Source: an uncultured Muribaculaceae bacterium (GTDB lineage: Bacteria > Bacteroidota > Bacteroidia > Bacteroidales > Muribaculaceae). Taken from it: a DNA stretch of 64,000 nt. Below, one piece after another: positions 5,701 through 45,241 of this stretch. Within the stretch, counting starts at the first letter, position 1. Every line of letters starts with the position of its first letter. A program made the translations under genes and the position numbers. Location of the stretch: contig CAJTQU010000007.1 of assembly GCA_910578665.1 (NCBI GenBank), positions 26,179 through 90,178 of the forward strand, read 5' to 3'. The notes beneath the pieces were generated by a model. It searched no databases. It saw only the letters and a list, made by a program, of their open reading frames with translations, and was not told the origin of the DNA.

Positions 5701-7757
5701 TCCATCTTATAATCATTGCCTTTTATTGTGCCGTCGGCCAGCAGACTTAAGTCCAGATTAGGATTGCGTCCCTCAAGGCTGATATTGTACACTCCGTGTG
5801 AAAGCGCGGCGTCTGCTTTGAGCGGCGCCATATTGTGTCCGCCATAAACCAGTGTGGCCATATCGGCCGAAATCTCTGTATGGGCGCGAGGCACGGTGGG
5901 ATTGAATCCGGCACCCTCGGCCGTGACATGTCCGCTGACAACGCCTACGCCCAGCGAGGGCATTATGGCGGCTATATTTAGACCTTTAGCCGTGACAGAC
6001 GCATCATATGTCTCGGCATTAAGACTGACTGTACCGTCCGCACTTGCATCACCGGCATCCGAACGCATGGCAAGGCGCGCCATATAAGTCTGATTGCGCA
6101 CACCGATATGGCCTTTGATTGAGAATCGCGGAACGTGTATGCCCGTACCTTTGAGTACCGAGGCAAGCAGGGCGTTGCCGACACGGGCGTCAAGTAGAGA
6201 ACCGTCCACATCAAGGCTCGCATTCATTTTTTTGATGTCTGTAGGATTGTCTACCGATCCGCTGGCCGTAAGTTTGAAAAAATTTCGTATCCCTATTTTA
6301 AGGAGCTTTACCGAAAGACTTGATACAGATCCAGAAGCATCAACATCAAGTGATACAGGACTGCGCTGCGGAAGCAACCTGAGCATATCTCTTAGCGAGG
6401 GCATAAAGGAGTACAGATCCTGCCATCCCAGATGCCCGTCAAGTTTCATGTCTACAGGCGCATCCGGATTCATAGCCATCATAGCATACGACAGATATGC
6501 CTGTGCCGACAGATTGGAGAACGGGGTAGCAAGCTTGAAATCATCTATCTTAATACCCAGCGAGTCTATGCCGAGCGTGCCGGAAGCGTTATTAACCTCA
6601 AGTCCGCAACGCTCCTTGGCACGAAGGCTTCGGATGGGCAGACGCAGCTCAGAAGCCCTGTTAAAGAAATCTGACACTTCCAGATCAATATCTCCAGCTT
6701 CTATGTACGATGGATCAAAACCTGGCTTAGGCACTGCTCCTGACGTCGCATACAGTGCACGCCCGAGCCTAAGATGGCATTTCTTGATACTCACGGTCAT
6801 AGGGGGTGAGGATGACGGCACGCTGTCTGCCGGAACCGGATGTCCGGCCACATATTCGGCCGTAGGGACCAGATAAGAGGCAGTGCCGCTGCCGCAGTCA
6901 AAATTGCCTATCGATATATTGCTATTCTTAAGGTCTATGAGCGTATTGTCCACCCTACCGGTGCCGATGCTGACTCCCAGTGTATCAATAGTGGGAAGCA
7001 TCGTCATGCCGAAATCTACATTTTTCAGCATGAGGCGGTCGGCGCCTATCACCCATTCGGCAGGTGAAGAGGCGGTATCTTTTTTCTGCTTCCATACATT
7101 CATGGCTATAGACACTTTCGCATCCTCAAGTCGCGAACCGCGCAGTCTGATATCAGATTTCTTAAGATTAACCCGGCTTCCGCCCTCGAACTGCAACATA
7201 CCGGCCCTGATACCCATATTAAGCGAGGAATCTGACGAAACCATGTTATATTGTCCGTCAAGCAGGCGCACGCGGTTTATCTGCACATCCATTTTCAACA
7301 GGGGCAGCATCTTCACATCGGCCAGAAGTGAACGCGCCGATACCATGGTGTCTCCATGAGCCTCAATAACTCTCAGATTTTCCAATTCGACATCAAGTGG
7401 GAAATGCAGCCTGAAACGGTCTACTTCAATCTGCATGCCGGTAGATTTCGATGCGGCCTTACAGGCAACCTCGATCAGAAAGTCCTGTACAAATGGGATG
7501 TAGACGGCGGCCGGCAATAATAATATAAACACTAGCAGACAGGCCAATGTCTTGAGTGTGCGGCGCAACCATGTGCACTTTATCAAGTGTGTGCGGCGCT
7601 TTCCAGGGTGTTTTCCATCTGTTACGTCTGTGTCATTTTCCTTTTGAACATGCACAGACGAATCATCCGCAGAAACCGTATTGACATCGGTATCCGTAGA
7701 TGGCGGTATAGGCACAGCAGGCCGTTCATTACTCTTATTATCGATATAGTCAGACAT
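2775..7757 (-). CDS. tamB: translocation and assembly module TamB-like protein (DUF490-type)
   Basis: 1660-aa ORF with a single N-terminal TM anchor (LACLLVFILLLPAAVYIPF) and a very long beta-strand-rich, Gly/Ser/Asp-rich body. It is paired with the Omp85 gene. Assigned by size, architecture and synteny. Confidence 0.6.
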   Translation of the reverse strand: MSDYIDNKSNERPAVPIPPSTDTDVNTVSADDSSVHVQKENDTDVTDGKHPGKRRTHLIKCTWLRRTLKTLACLLVFILLLPAAVYIPFVQDFLIEVACKAASKSTGMQIEVDRFRLHFPLDVELENLRVIEAHGDTMVSARSLLADVKMLPLLKMDVQINRVRLLDGQYNMVSSDSSLNMGIRAGMLQFEGGSRVNLKKSDIRLRGSRLEDAKVSIAMNVWKQKKDTASSPAEWVIGADRLMLKNVDFGMTMLPTIDTLGVSIGTGRVDNTLIDLKNSNISIGNFDCGSGTASYLVPTAEYVAGHPVPADSVPSSSPPMTVSIKKCHLRLGRALYATSGAVPKPGFDPSYIEAGDIDLEVSDFFNRASELRLPIRSLRAKERCGLEVNNASGTLGIDSLGIKIDDFKLATPFSNLSAQAYLSYAMMAMNPDAPVDMKLDGHLGWQDLYSFMPSLRDMLRLLPQRSPVSLDVDASGSVSSLSVKLLKIGIRNFFKLTASGSVDNPTDIKKMNASLDVDGSLLDARVGNALLASVLKGTGIHVPRFSIKGHIGVRNQTYMARLAMRSDAGDASADGTVSLNAETYDASVTAKGLNIAAIMPSLGVGVVSGHVTAEGAGFNPTVPRAHTEISADMATLVYGGHNMAPLKADAALSHGVYNISLEGRNPNLDLSLLADGTIKGNDYKMDIQADMRHVDLRALGLMADTCNGSGHINLCGTANPSAMLFDLAFGIDDIDWVYGSEHIQLPHALDGTLLATSTDVAAELNGDGLNAKFASDEPLKSVTANMDKLMAVVNRQLKDKALDMEEIQALLPPFSISLDATEDGLMGDALGRMGYHCASLAVSVCNADSIVTGNARILSAGTTSISIDTALFDFTQRGKMIDYGMHVGNRAGNMPEFASVDINGYVGGNRGSVFLRQRNAKGKMGYRLGLTAALMDSTVSVHLTPLAATIAYKPWKISEDNYIELGPGRKVRADLLAESSGSKVSLKTSETREGYTSLAVSITDVHIEDFLQMSLTAPPVAGTLNADMDIVYRGTAFTGNGTLGVAGLTYDKMRVGDIEADFKAGLGLNGNTGGSMNLYLDRQKVLMARGYMLADSAALRQRAGQSSELDLTLTRFPLRIANPFIGADMAQLSGYLNGTVNMAGTLSAPLLNGSIMCDSASVYVPMASARLDLDSASKIVVKDNVLRFNRFDIHAANDNTIALDGTVDARSFSNVLLDISLKGSDVALVNSSRKGKGDVYGKLFVNLDASARGPLDRLDIDADLSVLPSTDITYVRPTAVSALDNGSSTTDVVKFVQFADTAVVAAADSLKARTMSMRVNATLNIVNGAEVTVMLSGNGTDKVQLNPYGTLTYTQTYMGDMRLNGTLYLGTGFARYSVPVIGEKTFNFDTGSYVNWSGDIMNPTLRINATDRVRANVQQEGASSRIIYFDVALAVSGTLSVPKVTFDMSTQDDVTVQNELLSMTPEQRSAAAINLLLYNTYTGPGVKASANLSNPLYSFIEGQLNSWAAKNIRGIDLSFGIDNYKQTVEGQGQSTTTSYSYQVSKSLFDNRFKIVVGGNYSTDADADENFAQNLISDIAFEYNLKQTQTMNMYLKLFRHTGYESILEGEVTETGAGFVMKRKISSLKSLFRMGRRKKKTESVAVESSDSLVPLTTDTIIR

Positions 7758-10581: not shown

Positions 10582-10910
10582 TTTCTATTTCTTACTTTTT
10601 CAAGACATAACTTTCCAGAGCCGCCCCGACCTGTAAAGGCCGGCACTCAAAACCGAGGGGCAGACCCGGATAATTGTCTTGCGCAGCACCCGGACACATG
10701 TCGGCAGACACGTAGCCGGTAAGCCACATATTTGTTATTAAAGTCTGTCATGCCGCTCCTTAGCGCAGCCGCGACTGCCGAGAGAAAGGTTATGAGGCAG
10801 TCTATTCGCATTCAGAGCGCACTATAGTTTAATTGAGAATCTCGTTAAGATAGATAACGATGCATGTCTCGCGGTCCGGATAAAACCGGACAGGCACGCG
10901 TCGCATACCG
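10582..10910 (-). promoter_or_regulatory. 329-nt untranslated gap between rpsK and rpsD; candidate S4 autoregulatory leader
   Basis: There is no credible ORF, and GC is not AT-biased like promoter spacers. Small hairpins are present, e.g. GTCCGG/CCGGAC around 10874-10891. Location immediately 5' of rpsD. This is inference only. Confidence 0.3.
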
Positions 10911-41603: not shown

Positions 41604-42817
41604 AACTTATAATTGTTATCCCGAGCCGTCAAAGAGGTACTACAAAGTTTTTCTTCAGACTCCAGTTTGTTAAACAATTTATTCCAGTAATAATTATTTG
41701 CTCTCACACGCGCCTTGTGCATTTTGCAGATAGCGACCGACCGTTGATATATAGTGTCTGTATCAGCTGAATCATAGTTCTCTCCTTGACACCAGGCACA
41801 TCCACTGGCCACTTCGCATTCTATACACTCACGAGGTGACTGGCTTAACCGATCAAGAGATAGGAATGGCCTAAGAAGATCATTGTTGATACCATCTACA
41901 ACATTGCCGATGACGATCGGCTTCTTCTCTCTTAACGAATAAGCTGCAAAGCGAGTACATGGGTAAAAAAGACCTTTTGCATCAACAGCTAACATCCGTC
42001 CTGCTCCACACCAATTCTGATTGTCTACTTTAGAATCCAATGGTTTGCCAATGCTTTCTGAAAAAAATGAACAAGCATGATCCTCATAGTATCCGTGATT
42101 GATAATTTCATCTGCCAGTTCAATCAGCTGCTTTTCGAAAAGCTTATCATCACCTTCTTTCCAAACATTCTCAAATACGACATTGATATTAACCTCTTTG
42201 ATACCTAATGAATAAAGATGCAGCACACTCTCTCTGATATATGGAATATCAGCTGAACTGATAGTGACTTTAGTAGCTCCGTCCGGAAATTGAGACAGCC
42301 AAAGCGGTATGTTACGCACAACATCGTCATAGCTCCCCCGTTCAGGACCGCTACCTTTCCAGATCCTATTTAAGTCATGTTTTCGTTTTGTCCCATCAAT
42401 CGTTATCCCAATAGATAGATGTTCTCTATTTTTTTCTATGTATCGCTGTACTTTTTCACTATCGTAATTGATCCCATTAGTAGAGAACGAAAATCTGTAT
42501 GAATTGAACCATTTATGATTTAGTCGGAACATTTCGGTTTTTATGTAATCACAAATCTTATCAACAAGATCAATTTCTAGAAATGGTTCGCCCCCGATAA
42601 AATCCCATACCACCGAATCATCTTTAAAATCATCTTCATGGATAAGTATGTAATCAATTGCTGCCTTAGCAATTTTCCACTCCATTCGTTCGCTTTCATT
42701 TTTTCCTACAAGATAGCAATACTTGCAAGCAAGCTGGCAATCTTTCGTAACTATGAAAGTAATATTTTTGGTTCTACTTTCTCGCCAAGGGCGTTGTTGC
42801 TCCTTAATAGCACTCAT
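41597..42817 (-). CDS. radical SAM / SPASM-domain peptide maturase
   Basis: 406 aa with CxxxCxxC at C27/C31/C34 (TKDCQLACKYCY) and GGEPFL. C-terminal auxiliary-cluster cysteines: ...NWCGAGRMLAVDAKGLFYPC..., ...CIECEVASGCAWCQGENY..., ...CKMHKA... It lies directly downstream of the two Cys-repeat precursor genes. Confidence 0.85.
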   Translation of the reverse strand: MSAIKEQQRPWRESRTKNITFIVTKDCQLACKYCYLVGKNESERMEWKIAKAAIDYILIHEDDFKDDSVVWDFIGGEPFLEIDLVDKICDYIKTEMFRLNHKWFNSYRFSFSTNGINYDSEKVQRYIEKNREHLSIGITIDGTKRKHDLNRIWKGSGPERGSYDDVVRNIPLWLSQFPDGATKVTISSADIPYIRESVLHLYSLGIKEVNINVVFENVWKEGDDKLFEKQLIELADEIINHGYYEDHACSFFSESIGKPLDSKVDNQNWCGAGRMLAVDAKGLFYPCTRFAAYSLREKKPIVIGNVVDGINNDLLRPFLSLDRLSQSPRECIECEVASGCAWCQGENYDSADTDTIYQRSVAICKMHKARVRANNYYWNKLFNKLESEEKLCSTSLTARDNNYKLC

Positions 42818-42883
42818 ATAATGTGTATTTACATAATAAAGAAATGCAAGTATACCGAAACAAATTCGATATACTCACATTGA

Positions 42884-43201
42884 TTATCTACTTCCATATT
42901 TACATCCTCCGACACATCCTGTTTTGCAAGATGACAAACAAGCTCCTTTACATCCCGATTTACAGGAGTATGGGTGATACTCCATATTTGCACGGCAAGA
43001 GTCTCCACATGATGTTGAGCATGTGGAGCCACAACCAGAACAACCAGAAGACGAACCACCGCCTCCTCCACCTGGTTCATCCTCTGGATCACACGATGTC
43101 AGAAATGTCGGAACAATAGTTAATGCTAATATGGGCATAATTGCCGATACACTCTTCGAGAAAAACTTTCTTCTCGAAATCAGATTTTCATTGCCAATCA
43201 T
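42884..43201 (-). CDS. Cys-repeat precursor B: Tat signal + lipobox + Gly linker + 11-Cys CxxxC core
   Basis: 105 aa: MIGNENLISRRKFFSKSVSAIMPILALTIVPTFLTSC|DPEDEPGGGGGGSSSG CSGCGSTCSTSCGDSCRANMEYHPYSCKSGCKGACLSSCKTGCVGGCKYGSR. The twin-arginine motif is SRRKFFSK, and the lipobox is LTSC at Cys37. Confidence 0.8.
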   Translation of the reverse strand: MIGNENLISRRKFFSKSVSAIMPILALTIVPTFLTSCDPEDEPGGGGGGSSSGCSGCGSTCSTSCGDSCRANMEYHPYSCKSGCKGACLSSCKTGCVGGCKYGSR

Positions 43202-43203
43202 AA

Positions 43204-43479
43204 TTATTTACCAGAGTTATAACACATACCTCTACATGTTCCCTGGCATAAACCACTGCAACTAGTGCATGCATCACTACATTTTCCCGAGCAAGTTCCA
43301 GCACATCCGTAGCAACCACCACGACACGTTGTACAACTTGTAGCATCTGAATTAAGAGAATGGGCCAGGACAGGCGCATTAGCCAGAACTATCGTACCTA
43401 AAATAGGCAGGACTCCTTTCGCCGCGTTTTTAAAGAACTCGCGTCGTGACTGTAATTCTTTGTTTCGATTTTTATCCAT
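43204..43479 (-). CDS. Cys-repeat precursor A: Tat signal + 11-Cys CxxC/CxxxC core
   Basis: 91 aa: MDKNRNKELQSRREFFKNAAKGVLPILGTIVLANAPVLA|HSLNSDATS CTTCRGGCYGCAGTCSGKCSDACTSCSGLCQGTCRGMCYNSGK. The twin-arginine motif is SRREFFK, with a VLA-type signal peptidase I site. The stop is 2 nt before the precursor B start. Confidence 0.8.
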   Translation of the reverse strand: MDKNRNKELQSRREFFKNAAKGVLPILGTIVLANAPVLAHSLNSDATSCTTCRGGCYGCAGTCSGKCSDACTSCSGLCQGTCRGMCYNSGK

Positions 43480-43529
43480 GATCGAACTATCATGTCCTAT
43501 AGGCTCCCCGGATTGGACTTAAGATTTAT

Positions 43530-43775
43530 AAAAAAAGCGTGAAAGCCTGTACCTGTTGCTCTTTCAACTGATAGAGGCTCTCGCATTGCCCGTCTGAGTA
43601 GAAAGAGCAACGTCGAAGCCTCACGCTGTATGATAATACAAGAGCCGGCTCAAACCAGAACCAACATGTGTGTACCATACCCTATAAGGCATCTACCGTT
43701 GCTATTTCCTGACTCAGACAATTAGAATTTGCGAGATTCCTATCAGTCAAGAAAAAGCGTAAGTAAACGCTTTTT
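43530..43775 (-). promoter_or_regulatory. structured 5' leader of the Cys-repeat/rSAM/Tat operon (candidate attenuator, riboswitch-like element or sRNA)
   Basis: A two-tier hairpin at 43537-43626 (GCGTGA/TCACGC plus GTTGCTCTTTC/GAAAGAGCAAC) is followed on the minus strand by U7 (43530-43536). There is 22 bp of three-segment long-range complementarity between 43568-43599 and 43712-43746. A second hairpin, AAAAAGCGT/ACGCTTTTT, is at 43752-43775. Confidence 0.45.
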
Positions 43776-43836
43776 AATTATGTCTGCATCCCACCCACTT
43801 CAACCCGTATCGGGCTTCGACAAGCGATATGCGTCG

Positions 43837-43868
43837 CAAAGTTATAATTTTTATTTTACTAGCACAAA
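43837..43868 (-). promoter_or_regulatory. Bacteroidota-type promoter for the island operon
   Basis: On the minus strand, -33 TTTG (43865-43868), a 20-nt spacer, and -7 TAACTTTG (43837-43844). About 355 nt upstream of the precursor A ATG. Confidence 0.55.
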
Positions 43869-43993
43869 TTTTAACGCATTTTTTCAATTTTGACAAATAC
43901 ACACAACAAAAACTCCATACGGCATACATGAGAATATCGGCTTAAAATATGTTAATTACACCCTAGGCTTGTTATAAAGTGTGAAATTCAAAC

Positions 43994-44001
43994 TATATTT
44001 G
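43994..44001 (+). promoter_or_regulatory. -7 promoter box (TATATTTG) for the GlmU-like gene
   Basis: A TAnnTTTG match 28 nt upstream of the ATG at 44030. Only a partial -33 (cTTG at 43968-43971). Confidence 0.4.
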
Positions 44002-44029
44002 CAATTTCAATACTGACAGATAAGACAGC

Positions 44030-45241
44030 ATGAAGAACGTCATACTATATGATTCGGCATCTGTGCATGCAGATATGCTGCCGCTCTCATTCACCCGTCC
44101 GGTGAGCGACTTCAGAGTAGGCATAACTACCATAAGCGAAAAATGGCAGCACTATCTGCCAGGCAATTACAGTGTGTATACAGCCCCGTACCTGCGTGAC
44201 AAATTCACACCCCACGCGCAAAACACCAATTACTTCGTGGCCGCCAACTGCCTGCCCTCGGCAGAACTGGCAGAAGCCGTGTGCAGCCTCGCCACAGGCA
44301 GCGCGCTGGCAATGCCCGATGGAGAATACATAGCATTTGCCGGTTCAATGGAGGAATTCGAGGCTTTGGTGAAAAATGAGAAAGAGGTGCCTGTCACGAC
44401 ATTTCACGGGCCATGCACACCGCTGCATTTTTTATATGATCTGTTTCTGAACAACGGCAAAGCGCTGGCTGACGATTACCACGTCATAACAGCCGGAAGG
44501 GCCAGCCAGCCTCTGTCTGATTCTAACAGACTGATAGGAAATCCGTTGCTGCCTGACGGTACACCGGCCCTCTTCATAGAAGAGGGAGCATGGATAGAGG
44601 GGGCGACAATCAATGTGTCGGAAGGGCCTGTATATGTAGGCCGCGGAGCCAGAATATCGGAGGGCAGCTGCGTGCGCGGTCCCCTGGCCTTATGCGACCA
44701 CGCCCAGGTTAACATGGGGGCCAAAATATACGGCAACACCACCCTCGGACCGTATTGCAAAGTCGGCGGAGAGCTGAACAATGTGGTCATGTTCGGTTAT
44801 TCCAACAAGGCGCATGACGGCTATCTGGGCAATGCAGTCATAGGCGAATGGTGCAATATCGGTGCCGGTACCAATGCGTCAAACCTGAAAAACGATTATT
44901 CCAAAATACGCCTGTGGAATTACAATAAGCGATCATTCGTGCGCACCGACCTGCAGTTCTGCGGACTAATGATGGGAGACCATTCAAAGGCCGGCATCAA
45001 CTGCATGTTCAATACGGCCACAGTTGTGGGTGTCGGCTGCAATGTACATGGCGCCGGATTCCCAAGACCATTTGTTCCGAGCTTCTCCGAGGGAAGCCCG
45101 TCTGCCGGATTCCGCGATGTAGACCTTAGAAAATTTTTCGACATTGCCGCACGTGTCATGGCCCGACGCGGCATAGAACTAACAGAACTGGACCGCCGCA
45201 TTTTCCAAGCCATATCGGAAGCTGCCGCCAGCTATAAATAA
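44030..45241 (+). CDS. putative sugar nucleotidyltransferase with a left-handed beta-helix (GlmU-like)
   Basis: 403 aa. The C-terminal half shows hexapeptide-repeat character (...IEGATINVSEGPVYVGRGARISEGSCVRGPLALCDHAQVNMGAKIYGNTTLGPYCKVGGE...). Confidence 0.6.
   Translation: MKNVILYDSASVHADMLPLSFTRPVSDFRVGITTISEKWQHYLPGNYSVYTAPYLRDKFTPHAQNTNYFVAANCLPSAELAEAVCSLATGSALAMPDGEYIAFAGSMEEFEALVKNEKEVPVTTFHGPCTPLHFLYDLFLNNGKALADDYHVITAGRASQPLSDSNRLIGNPLLPDGTPALFIEEGAWIEGATINVSEGPVYVGRGARISEGSCVRGPLALCDHAQVNMGAKIYGNTTLGPYCKVGGELNNVVMFGYSNKAHDGYLGNAVIGEWCNIGAGTNASNLKNDYSKIRLWNYNKRSFVRTDLQFCGLMMGDHSKAGINCMFNTATVVGVGCNVHGAGFPRPFVPSFSEGSPSAGFRDVDLRKFFDIAARVMARRGIELTELDRRIFQAISEAAASYK

Follow-up and report, generated by a model that had tools for sequence, protein, structure and literature searches.

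Background

Bacteroidales dominate the mammalian gut, and few RNA-based controls are known there. The leader RNA described here lies in a 64,000-nucleotide stretch of a contig from an uncultured Muribaculaceae bacterium (the window, in what follows), upstream of a pair of genes for CXXX-repeat precursor peptides, and it invites comparison with several described systems. It shares with classical attenuators (the trp and pyr leaders, and terminator-type riboswitches) a position between promoter and gene and a terminator whose 5' strand can be sequestered by an alternative partner further upstream. Unlike these, it has no conserved leader peptide and no match to a known aptamer, is much larger, carries a second lock in the form of a long-range pairing of about 24 bp (P3-P5) to the terminator loop, and is reused before dozens of unrelated genes. 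The T-box (RF00230) is similar in size (200-300 nt), in its elongated multi-helix shape, in the choice between terminator and antiterminator and in standing, in many copies, before a variety of genes; an effector that is a macromolecule acting in trans is plausible for our leader too. However, the leader has no Rfam T-box match, neither the conserved T-box sequence nor a specifier loop is recognised in it, it belongs to another phylum, it is not found in the context of aminoacyl-tRNA synthetase or amino-acid genes, and its hypervariable segments pair with each other rather than with a tRNA.

Antitermination of the UpxY/opsX and LoaP/RfaH type provides another parallel, since here too we are in Bacteroidales and before surface, capsule and secondary-metabolite operons. 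In the work on UpxY, premature termination within the leader is reportedly the controlled step. The opsX element is a DNA element of about 40 bp, with a YGCGNAGCR motif on the non-template strand and a pause hairpin (PMC11685472). Our leader has a GCG..AGC-like conserved block after a hairpin, and three of its copies precede NusG-like genes; unlike opsX it is an RNA, about 300 nt long, whose alternative folds covary, its motif is inexact, the block covaries as RNA, and the first gene at this locus is a CXXX precursor, not upxY. The c-di-GMP-I (GEMM) riboswitch is likewise a leader that stands in many copies before genes of very diverse kinds, often genes for exported or surface proteins, with copies on phage contigs as well, whereas our leader has no Rfam match in sequence or structure and no ligand or pocket has been identified for it. 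Finally, FopS and GibS are multi-copy non-coding RNAs of gut Bacteroidales which, like the leader, have canonical sigma-A-type promoters and intrinsic terminators. The FopS RNAs are about 65-70 nt long, consist of a single-stranded seed (R1') and a single terminator hairpin, and act in trans on susC mRNAs (PMC11697453), whereas the leader is about 300 nt long, rod-shaped, and placed directly in cis before genes. Identity with FopS/GibS was rejected on size and architecture (PMC11697453); a FopS model is also said to be in Rfam, in which the leader has no match.

We think it likely, with a probability of about 0.65, that the leader is a member of a large family of promoter-leader-terminator modules in Bacteroidales and acts as a conditional intrinsic terminator, that is, as an attenuator.

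The locus and its transcript

The leader is a minus-strand RNA of about 300 nt that opens the precursor mRNA and runs from about 43832 to a U tract at 43536-43530. It is framed by the following features.

43837-43868, minus strand: Bacteroidetes-type promoter, with a -33 TTTG (43868-43865), a 20-nt spacer and a -7 box TAACTTTG (43844-43837), read directly from the sequence.
43786-43832, minus strand: 5' hairpin domain (GCAU/AUGC, CGCUUGU/GUGGGUG, CCCG/CGGG), beginning at the likely transcription start, about 43832.
42884-43479, minus strand: two CXXX-repeat precursor genes (43479-43204 and 43201-42884) downstream of the leader, with TIGR04117 matches below the curated cut-off.

Downstream of the precursor genes come an rSAM gene (TIGR04115, 622 bits) and a CXXX maturase gene (TIGR04119). 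The promoter is where a first-pass annotation of this DNA had placed it, far from the first ATG (43479); its TAnnTTTG box is near-invariant in an alignment of 35 homologous leaders and is found in most of the metagenome copies discussed below. RNA contigs start 5-30 nt 3' of the promoter, without coverage upstream. A transcript starting near the ATG, which would have refuted the original proposal, is not what these contigs show: their starts, at about 43806-43832, precede the ATG by some 330-350 nt; the terminus of one contig, in run X25, is exactly 43832, where the 5' hairpin domain begins. Coverage at 43873-44076 was zero in X25, X26, X27, X28, X29, X33 and X35; a contig of X18 extends to 43920. 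It had also been conceivable that the region belongs to an independent plus-strand RNA. This too is contradicted: many helix positions exchange G-C or A-U for G-U, which would give C-A mismatches on the plus strand, so that the functional strand must be the minus strand, and the conservation of the minus-strand TAnnTTTG promoter leads to the same conclusion.

In at least five runs single RNA contigs link the leader to the precursor genes, and those of X26, X27, X28 and X29 span the terminator. The coverage of X25 is split between a contig at 43520-43832 (depth 41) and another at 42812-43509 (depth 24), with the break at the terminator. Transcription begins far upstream, then, and in most RNA runs it continues into the precursor genes. 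We had assembled contigs only, without a read-level map of 3' ends, and contig depth is a poor measure of termination; the first four RNA runs examined gave mostly DNA-like contigs and were uninformative.

A large family of leaders

Among 80 loci found through the rSAM protein, 57 have the leader, always co-oriented and in single copy, with 67-80% nucleotide identity over about 350-400 nt. It is missing from 17 of the 74 assessable CXXX operons and hence is not essential to the CXXX pathway. Gut or rumen metagenomes provide further copies, on about 98 contigs, and about 17 viral contigs carry the leader too; it precedes unrelated genes there (for surface proteins, capsule NusG-like genes, defence-like genes), and 57 unrelated downstream gene clusters are found across the family. 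A co-oriented ORF of at least 80 aa starts within 150 nt of the U tract in 75 of 91 instances (median 64 nt), and a gene on the opposite strand is nearer in only 6 of the 91. A NusG-like protein is encoded by 3 of 83 downstream genes; the copies L121, L159 and L198 immediately precede NusG-domain genes and have no other ops-like motif ahead of the start codon.

No second copy was found in the 64-kb window, and no plasmid match to the leader. A mobile repeat of the MITE or REP kind was rejected on these two grounds, together with the compensatory changes in the diverged copies and the co-orientation of the 75. Lexical searches of the literature found no description of such leaders, and this family of promoter-leader-terminator modules is apparently undescribed so far.

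One may ask whether the product is the terminated RNA itself (43832-43530, about 300 nt), an independent small RNA that acts in trans or binds a protein, read-through being incidental. It has a promoter and a terminator of its own, it is multi-copy, its 5' and 3' ends pair (helix P1, below) as in stable rod-shaped RNAs, and in X25 it appears as a discrete 313-nt contig, deeper than the downstream one. We consider this very unlikely nonetheless, given the genes that follow 75 of the 91 copies so closely, the rarity (6) of a nearer gene on the opposite strand, the single contigs joining leader and precursor genes in at least five runs, the conservation of a fold that competes with the terminator, and the absence, in the window sequence, of any promoter-like TAnnTTTG box between the terminator and the ATG.

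The terminator

The following features lie at the 3' end of the leader and between it and the first gene.

43530-43627, minus strand: two-tier intrinsic terminator; outer tier T1 pairs 43627-43621 with 43542-43536, inner tier T2 pairs 43611-43601 with 43565-43555, and seven U follow at 43536-43530.
43494-43518, minus strand: post-terminator hairpin between the terminator and the ATG; GUCC (43518-43515) pairs with GGAC (43497-43494) around a conserved loop, AAUCCGGGGAGCCUAUA.

T1 is AGCGUGA/UCACGCU and T2 is GUUGCUCUUUC/GAAAGAGCAAC. The earlier description of a two-tier, terminator-like hairpin followed by seven U is thereby confirmed, with the U tract directly adjoining the stem and 51 nt before the ATG. 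A stem and a U tract between promoter and first gene are what is expected of the expression platform of an attenuator or riboswitch. In the alignment 90.5% of terminator cells are paired, against 44-47% when one strand is slid along the other; two-sided changes occupy 102 cells against 35 in shuffles, and a run of at least five U is kept by 119 of 134 members.

These tallies depend on alignment register. MAFFT places the window row one column off near GUCAAG and in the post-terminator hairpin, and the alignment-based counts for P5, for the sequestor hairpin P-alpha (below) and for the post-terminator hairpin are therefore underestimates. For this reason we also used an alignment-free mix-and-match test, in which duplexes of cognate strands are compared with duplexes of non-cognate strands among 134 non-redundant members; the controls were flat, and all energies are in kcal/mol. 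By this test T2 scores -15.5 against -11.4 and T1 -13.4 against -11.6. The post-terminator hairpin scores -5.9 against -4.0, the cognate duplex being the better in 84%; its stem occurs as GUCC/GGAC, GCCC/GGGC, GCCG/CGGC, UGCC/GGCA and GUCU/AGAC, and at a slide of -1, the window row being one column off register in alignment A4, it is 67% paired with the top covariation score. In most metagenome copies the sequence match stops before this hairpin.

The rod and the competing fold

Folding the leader gives a predicted minimum free energy of -129.9 kcal/mol, whereas dinucleotide shuffles give -94.7 +/- 4.7 (z = -7.56, none of 100 shuffles being as good). The long rod is made of the following helices.

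43747-43739 (ACUGAUAGG) with 43575-43567, minus strand: helix P3 (P3-P5 span 43567-43747).
43736-43730 (UCUCGCA) with 43585-43579, minus strand: helix P4.
43719-43712 (GUCUGAGU) with 43599-43592, minus strand: helix P5.
43708-43698 (GAAAUAGCAAC) with 43611-43601 (GUUGCUCUUUC), minus strand: P6 and its extension, the antiterminator pairing of segments 2 and 3 (inner rod 43601-43708).
43693-43686 with 43622-43615, minus strand: helix P7, 82% paired, with two-sided changes.
43679-43674 with 43634-43629, minus strand: helix P8, 76% paired, with two-sided changes.
43665-43644, minus strand: variable apical hairpin of the inner rod.
43774-43767 (AAAAGCGU) with 43540-43533 (ACGCUUUU), minus strand: closing helix P1 (closing helices 43533-43774).
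43765-43762 (UACU) with 43553-43550 (GGUA), minus strand: closing helix P1b.

P3, P4 and P5 are the three-segment long-range pairing that had been noticed from the window alone, and comparison with more than 130 non-redundant homologues, across which the pairings covary, removes the possibility that the paired segments lack conservation or covariation in related loci. An unbiased mutual-information scan recovers P3, P4, P5, T1, T2, P6, P1b and the d-hairpin (below); its top five column pairs are all in P3, followed by P4 and P5. P3 is 95% paired, with eight of its nine pairs changed on both sides, and P4 is 98% paired; cognate duplexes exceed non-cognate ones in P3 (-11.3 vs -2.7), P5 (-10.6 vs -3.7) and P4 (-11.2 vs -8.3). 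The P6 core, GCAAC/GUUGC, hardly varies and is 99% paired, and the pair 43706/43604 of its extension covaries (CG 45, TA 28), as does the P1b pair 43763/43552 (CG 68, TA 29). Taken as a whole, the rod has 83.9% of its cells paired (72.3% in shuffles, 33-45% slid) and 418 cells with two-sided change, against 158 in shuffles.

Support is weak for P1, for the local hairpin H0 and for the 5' domain. RNAalifold predicted zero pairs on the short 5' and 3' sub-alignments, and the helices of these regions were for that reason set by hand and then counted. P1 is 97% paired and two of its pairs vary (25/368: AU 32, GC 15; 26/367: GC 37, AU 11), its 3' columns covary also with the 5' strand of T1, and its mix-and-match support is weak. 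The 5' domain has 81% of cells paired, against 30-50% with the partner slid, and its cognate duplexes score -11.7 against -9.3 kcal/mol in the CXXX set and -8.9 against -6.2 in the general set; its variation is mostly from G-C to G-U, hence the modest covariation.

Opposed to the rod are local hairpins on the 5' side.

43752-43775, minus strand: local hairpin H0, AAAAAGCGU (43775-43767) with ACGCUUUUU (43760-43752).
43705-43754, minus strand: 5' sequestor hairpin P-alpha, UUUCUUGAC (43754-43746) with GUCAGGAAA (43713-43705), enclosing strands c, d and e.
43740-43736 (GGAAU) with 43728-43724 (AUUCU), minus strand: d-hairpin inside P-alpha, with the loop CUCGCAA.

H0 lies where first described and has 9 bp and a 6-nt loop; it is 71% paired in 53 sequences and its support is slight (-7.4 vs -6.5). 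Its 5' arm has an alternative partner at the 3' end of the leader, with which it forms P1, and in L069 and L016 it fits the 3'-terminal strand better than the local one. P-alpha is better supported (-7.2 vs -4.7 kcal/mol, 91% of members beating the non-cognate median); its base pair at about 43754/43706 covaries (GC 37, AT 34), as does the pair 43739/43725 (AT 61, GC 55) of the d-hairpin, which is 86% paired. P-alpha, P1 and the role of 43708-43698 as direct competitor for the terminator 5' strand had all been overlooked by the first-pass annotation.

That annotation was right that the 3' strands of the long-range pairing sit in the loop of T2, from which it inferred either competition or a pseudoknot, but the competition is richer than it claimed: beside the long-range rod there is a chain of pairings, segment 1 with 2, 2 with 3 and 3 with 4, which the mutual-information scan recovers as 43754:43706, 43706:43604 and 43604:43562. 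Position 43604 thus covaries with both 43706 (antiterminator) and 43562 (terminator), and 43706 also with about 43754. P3 and P5 cross T2 and P-alpha, which provides the alternative pairing expected of an attenuator. As far as comparative sequence analysis can show it, there are two sets of pairings which cannot both be drawn as nested helices and which are each maintained by compensatory change. Could the two coexist? A rod and terminator combined as an H-type pseudoknot were rejected, because the linkers between T2 and the rod strands, of 1-2 nt, leave no room for a straight rod; a bent, triangle-like pseudoknot containing both T2 and the rod helices is formally possible and cannot be excluded from the sequence alone.

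All fold energies and folds at different transcript lengths are predictions. The predicted minimum free energy structure is the rod in 120 of 134 members, by a mean of 19.9 kcal/mol over the terminator fold, and the rod persists at all transcript lengths tested. When its 3' strands are blocked, T2 is predicted in 126, T1 in 123 and P-alpha in 121 of the 134.

These figures can be read in another way, namely that the leader does not switch at all, the rod protecting or processing the mRNA (as a 5' stabiliser, an RNase III site or an insulator) and the terminator pairings being folding intermediates or a back-up. The rod as ground state and the uninterrupted read-through in most RNA runs are in agreement with this, and the start of the downstream contig of X25, which at 43509 falls within the post-terminator hairpin, could be a site of processing. 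What makes us give it little credence is that T1, T2 and P-alpha are kept by compensatory changes and that the U run of at least five residues stands right after T1 in those 119 members, which would be difficult to account for if the terminator fold were not used.

Under the attenuator model, the two folds would work as follows. In the first (the rod, P1-P8), segment 2 (43708-43698) pairs with segment 3 (43611-43601), the terminator 5' strand, and the terminator-loop strands 43599-43567 pair with 43747-43712; terminator formation would be blocked, and RNA polymerase would read into the precursor genes. In the second, the sequestor of segments 1 and 2 (43754-43746 with 43713-43705), the small hairpin presenting CUCGCAA and the terminator (segments 3 and 4 plus T1) with its U7 would halt RNA polymerase at 43536-43530. 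Read-through is probably the default, since the rod has a predicted advantage of about 20 kcal/mol and should form stepwise during RNA synthesis. Termination would then probably be forced by an unidentified factor that either keeps the 5' sequestor closed or covers 43599-43567. The original proposal, which saw here the architecture of a riboswitch, an attenuator or a protein-dependent antiterminator, is thus supported and has survived the observations that could have refuted it; regulated termination remains an inference, no experiment showing a switch and most runs showing simple read-through.

What might the leader respond to?

Rfam 15, which covers all riboswitch classes, T-box, 6S, Bacteroidales-1, Bacteroides-1/2, Gut-1 and others, gave a sole match in the whole window at the gathering threshold, an S4-Bacteroidia leader at 10766-10802; a search of 43300-44100 at E <= 10 gave only two matches, at chance level and outside the structured core. 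The initial failure to assign the leader to a known riboswitch class by eye is borne out. No conserved leader peptide was found: the commonest AUG, in GGCAAUGCGA, opens ORFs of 4-48 codons in no fixed frame, and is lost where P4 covaries. Ribosome-mediated attenuation was rejected accordingly, for want of a conserved frame behind the conserved AUG and of any bias to multiples of three in the apical length, which spans 9 to 120 nt.

A small molecule or ion could still be the effector, a conserved core binding a metabolite or second messenger during transcription and tipping the balance between rod and terminator; this would be a sub-case of attenuation, with a ligand as effector. Such a core might be the P6-P7-P8 region, whose internal loops are invariant, or the GGGCAA/GCC loops on either side of P4. 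The architecture of a two-state terminator covaries, the unpaired blocks GCAACGGUAGAUGCC, GCGUGRGGCU and GGGCAAUGCGAGAGCC are invariant beyond what pairing needs, and the presence of many copies before diverse surface and other genes recalls riboswitches for global signals of the c-di-GMP type. But no Rfam class matches, nothing in the gene context suggests a ligand, conserved loop bases are few in the 5' sequestor domain, and a predicted gap of about 20 kcal/mol with helices of 8-11 bp would be hard for a ligand to override, except kinetically. We regard a ligand as unlikely, without dismissing it. SAM, metals and thiols, suggested from gene context, fit poorly with 57 unrelated downstream gene clusters, and were rejected because the same leader fronts so many unrelated genes and 17 of the 74 CXXX operons do without it.

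About as doubtful to us is protein-dependent antitermination, in which a NusG paralogue (UpxY-like) or another RNA- or DNA-binding factor would load in the leader and carry RNA polymerase past it and past later terminators. NusG paralogues typically target long, horizontally acquired surface, capsule or antibiotic operons, and the genes downstream of our leaders are much like these. The most conserved block, UGCGARRGCC (43585-43576), would be an ops-like loading site and the preceding P5 a pause hairpin, just as in the B. fragilis capsule leaders UpxY is loaded through a pause hairpin and the non-template YGCGNAGCR (PMC11685472). The leader's TGCGAGAGC / TGCGAAGGC does resemble this motif and the E. 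coli ops GCGGTAGC, and L121, L159 and L198 stand directly before NusG-domain genes without another such motif. The match to YGCGNAGCR is not exact, however, and in loci chosen independently of the motif it changes together with its RNA partner at 43736-43730 (CGC/GCG to GGC/GCC or GGA/UCC), which points to RNA pairing and not to DNA recognition. NusG-like genes, moreover, are only 3 of 83, and antitermination alone would leave the conservation of two elaborate alternative RNA folds unexplained. Recombinant B. fragilis RNA polymerase, NusA and UpxY proteins exist (PMC11685472).

Returning to the attenuator, we find a signal specific to the peptide pathway unlikely, because the same leader precedes unrelated genes. 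Rather than to a metabolite of that pathway, the leader probably responds to a general cellular signal, or else to a dedicated protein or RNA.

Conclusions

A wider proposal can be made only tentatively, and we would not bet on it at even odds: that these leaders form a new and abundant class of bistable sensors, shared by gut Bacteroidales and their phages, which respond to one global signal (be it a second messenger or other small molecule, or a dedicated factor of the NusG or RNA-binding type) and, by means of a single reusable promoter-leader-terminator module, co-ordinate surface, capsule, defence-like and peptide natural-product genes. If this were true, what defines the regulon would be an RNA element instead of a transcription factor. 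The leader would also be a strong candidate for an orphan riboswitch or an antitermination element, with its helices mapped to the base. It would define a large regulon acting after initiation, made of surface, capsule-regulator, defence-like and phage genes together with a radical-SAM peptide operon, and expression of the CXXX peptides at this locus is probably tied to a general cellular signal rather than to their own chemistry.

Structure of the leader

The elements that the first-pass annotation had read by eye are present on the minus strand: a promoter (TTTG at 43868-43865, 20 nt, then TAACTTTG at 43844-43837), a first hairpin of 9 bp (AAAAAGCGU/ACGCUUUUU, 43775-43752), a long-range pairing in three segments that joins 43747-43712 with 43599-43567 (helices P3 to P5 of a longer rod, P1 to P8), and a terminator-like hairpin of two tiers with seven U directly after it. 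The same hairpin arms were recovered by a repeat finder and by a terminator scan.

Elements of the leader and the precursor genes
43754-43746 with 43713-43705, minus strand: P-alpha, a 5' sequestor hairpin (segment 1:2) that encloses the 5' rod strands, from mutual information and duplex energies
43627-43621 with 43542-43536, minus strand: T1, outer tier of the terminator, read in the sequence
43611-43601 with 43565-43555, minus strand: T2, inner tier of the terminator, read in the sequence
43536-43530, minus strand: U7 tract, 51 nt 5' of the ATG at 43479, read in the sequence
43479-43204 and 43201-42884, minus strand: two precursor genes, Tat-signal, Cys-rich

The predicted fold of the 356-nt leader has -129.9 kcal/mol, whereas dinucleotide shuffles give -94.7 +/- 4.7 (z = -7.56). 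It had been matched to no known riboswitch class, and Rfam 15 likewise places no family in the leader, neither at the gathering threshold nor at E <= 10. Elsewhere in the window, at 10766-10802 on the minus strand, Rfam recognises an S4-Bacteroidia ribosomal protein leader (RF03139, 39 bits for a gathering score of 34.7).

Conservation in CXXX-repeat operons

Directly downstream lies a CXXX-repeat peptide operon, in which the precursors are followed by a radical SAM maturase (rSAM, TIGR04115, 622 bits), a CXXX maturase (TIGR04119) and a lipoprotein; the upstream divergent gene is an alternative GlmU. A scan with the rSAM protein, at one genome per species, gave 80 Bacteroidales loci (73-84% amino-acid identity), mostly from Muribaculaceae, Prevotellaceae and relatives. 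By blastn and nhmmer the leader was found in 57 of these, at 67-80% nucleotide identity from promoter to start codon, and in all 57 on the operon strand and in single copy. As six of the 23 negative loci have less than 500 nt of upstream sequence and are hence not assessable, the leader is carried by 57 of 74 assessable CXXX operons.

In some CXXX loci (L004, L014, L016, L069, L068; L009, L044; L002, L015, L033) genes intervene between leader and precursor, coding for a small conserved protein of 176-184 aa that carries a signal peptide and by eye resembles a beta-barrel, for a Big_2-like lipoprotein (about 500 aa) or for a small cytoplasmic protein (79-94 aa). In the Muribaculaceae MAG JAGBIJ01 there are two separate CXXX-repeat operons, and a diverged copy of the leader precedes each of them (L010, L020).

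Covariation of the two folds

RNAalifold predicted a single long nested rod from 35 leaders. When rod helices and T1/T2 were counted on a 54-sequence alignment, 83.9% of the rod cells were paired, whereas shuffles gave 72.3% and sliding the partner gave 33-45%, and cells with two-sided change numbered 418 versus 158 in shuffles; P3 was 95% paired (two-sided change in 8 of 9 pairs) and P4 98%. The terminator behaves in the same manner, with 90.5% of T1 and T2 paired versus 44-47% when slid, and 102 two-sided-change cells versus 35. Covariation links the 3' strand ACGCUUUU to two 5' strands, those of P1 and T1 (columns 25, 266, 368). A lack of conservation or covariation, which would have refuted the leader, is thus not what these counts and the 57 of 74 operons indicate. 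Nor does the possibility of a plus-strand RNA survive, since at many helix positions G-C or A-U alternates with G-U, which is compatible only with the minus strand as the functional RNA.

Because MAFFT misplaced some variable strands, we added two register-independent tests on 134 non-redundant members. The first compared duplexes of the 5' and 3' strands of one member with duplexes in which the 3' strand came from a different member; two control pairings were flat.

Mix-and-match duplex energies (kcal/mol, n=134)
P3: cognate -11.3, non-cognate -2.7
P4: cognate -11.2, non-cognate -8.3
P5: cognate -10.6, non-cognate -3.7
P-alpha: cognate -7.2, non-cognate -4.7
T2: cognate -15.5, non-cognate -11.4
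T1: cognate -13.4, non-cognate -11.6

The second scored mutual information, with average-product correction, on an hmmalign alignment made from sequence alone; here the top pairs were five of P3, then P4, the d-hairpin (a small hairpin inside P-alpha), P5, T1, T2, P6 and P1b. Examples are 43739/43725 in the d-hairpin (AT 61, GC 55), 43621/43542 in T1 (GC 67, AT 30) and 43604/43562 in T2 (GC 56, AT 30, TA 12). This last pair closes a covarying chain in which about 43754 goes with 43706 (GC 37, AT 34), 43706 with 43604 (CG 45, TA 28) and 43604 with 43562. The chain has the 1:2 / 2:3 / 3:4 order of segments that classical attenuators have, 1:2 being the sequestor P-alpha, 2:3 the antiterminator and 3:4 the inner tier of the terminator.

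An AUG at 43586-43584, within GGCAAUGCGA, occurs in 125/134 members. We considered a leader peptide and rejected it: the ORFs range from 4 to 48 codons without a constant reading frame, and where the helix has covaried the AUG is gone. Its frequency is a side effect of the conservation of the RNA block.

Mutual exclusion

The competition between folds suggested earlier is borne out in that P3-P5 cross T2 as well as P-alpha; P6 and P7 also have bases in common with T2 and T1. Since linkers of only 1-2 nt separate T2 from the rod strands in its loop, a straight 24-bp rod and T2 cannot coexist, although a sharply bent arrangement holding both cannot be excluded from sequence. With this reservation, the analysis shows a leader with two sets of pairings that are conserved, covary and exclude each other; an intrinsic terminator is one of the two.

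In minimum free energy predictions the window leader kept the growing rod at all transcript lengths tested and never formed the terminator; up to the U tract, 120 of the 134 members were predicted to fold as the rod and two as the terminator. With the 3' rod strands forced unpaired, at a mean predicted cost of 19.9 kcal/mol, T2 appeared in 126, P-alpha in 121 and T1 in 123 of the 134. A U run of at least 5 follows T1 in 119 members.

RNA evidence

Logan contigs from public RNA-seq runs provide evidence for the transcript, contig depth being no measure of termination. Run X25 gave a 313-nt contig at exactly 43520-43832 (depth 41) and a second at 42812-43509 (depth 24), with nothing at 43873-44076. 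Single contigs from X26, X29, X27 and X28 extend from about 43806-43817 across the terminator into the precursor genes (those of X27 and X28 stopping near 42874-42920), and that of X18 spans the terminator and reaches upstream to 43920. These ends and spans place the transcript start some 5 nt downstream of the -7 box, and not near the ATG, which would have told against a leader. They also make the leader part of the precursor mRNA, the terminator being leaky or off in these samples. The distant start and the read-through transcripts count as shown, as does the cis arrangement.

Directly after precursor gene B is a 17-bp terminator-like hairpin (42843-42881, minus strand). The ends of RNA contigs fall at about 42812-42920, and several runs have zero depth over the rSAM gene start, so that precursor mRNA is seemingly far commoner than that of the maturase. 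This imbalance suggests that transcription is attenuated at a second point within the operon.

In runs X3, X4, X12, X29 and X35, other contigs match the leader only at 43574-43592 and 43684-43705, its two most conserved blocks, and differ from it elsewhere; in one of them, 225 letters unlike those of the leader connect 43547 and 43766. The same samples therefore contain paralogous leaders, which in the RNA runs X29 and X35 are expressed.

A wider family

Used to scan metagenomes, the most conserved 16-mer (GGCAATGCGARRGCCT) gave at least 120 contigs, and nhmmer (E <= 1e-3) found the leader in 98 of the 120 matches listed, several partial. Conservation of this block is circular in a set so chosen; the rSAM-selected set is free of such bias. 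The same 16-mer gave 57 contigs in IMG/VR, about 17 with the leader, some partial (L215, L227, L238, L250, L248, L255, L230, L211, L249, L207, L205, L253, L243 and others). These copies retain the TAnnTTTG promoter, 5' hairpin, rod and terminator, and CXXX genes adjoin only two metagenome copies among the matches listed.

Where the flank sufficed, 75 of 91 instances had a co-oriented ORF of at least 80 aa whose start lay less than 150 nt from the U tract, at a median of 64 nt; in six, a gene on the opposite strand was nearer. The 83 downstream proteins form 57 clusters, and 36 look exported. Pfam finds Big_2, BspA-type LRR, FG-GAP and PEGA among the surface proteins, and DUF2971, DUF4007, a D12 DNA methyltransferase, a kinase-AAA protein and NusG-domain proteins among the others. 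One cluster is common to metagenome and viral contigs (L162, L230, L241, L248, L255). L144 carries two head-to-head leaders (95-336 minus and 602-993 plus, about 270 nt apart) with divergent transcription.

In L121 (about 6007-6693), L159 and L198 the leader directly precedes NusG-domain (UpxY-like) genes, which points to capsule-type loci; the assignment rests on Pfam NusG for the L121 protein and on clustering with it for the other two. In Bacteroides capsule leaders, a pause hairpin serves to load UpxY together with the motif YGCGNAGCR (PMC11685472), of which the leader's UGCGARRGCC is reminiscent, and between terminator and start codon these three loci have no ops-like motif besides the leader's own TGCGAGAGC / TGCGAAGGC block. 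UGCGARRGCC covaries with its RNA partner, however, so we keep loading of the opsX/UpxY type as a rival lead.

Possible mechanism and implications

Attenuators and terminator-type riboswitches follow the same logic, the present leader being without known aptamer or leader peptide. T-box leaders resemble it in size and in reuse before many genes, but neither their Rfam model nor their gene context fits. FopS sRNAs have a length of 65-70 nt and a trans mode of action (PMC11697453). Our literature search found no paper describing the leader.

We infer that P-alpha and the d-hairpin would form first, and that the emerging 43599-43567 would then pair with the 5' strands left exposed, a step for which the conserved CUCGCA/UGCGAG contact may be the nucleus. 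Rod pairing would open P-alpha and free 43708-43698 to hold 43611-43601, blocking the terminator; the default is probably read-through. A factor that blocked rod pairing over the stretch of roughly 70 nt leading up to the U tract would let T2 and T1 form, with a stop at 43536-43530. Of the original proposal of a riboswitch, attenuator or antiterminator, the attenuator-type pairing logic is supported by covariation, while switching is inferred and no effector has been identified.

The presence of the leader on some 17 predicted viral contigs implies that Bacteroidales phages or prophages use the same module. As it stands before unrelated genes and phage genes alike, we expect its effector to be a general signal or a dedicated macromolecule, rather than a metabolite of the CXXX pathway.
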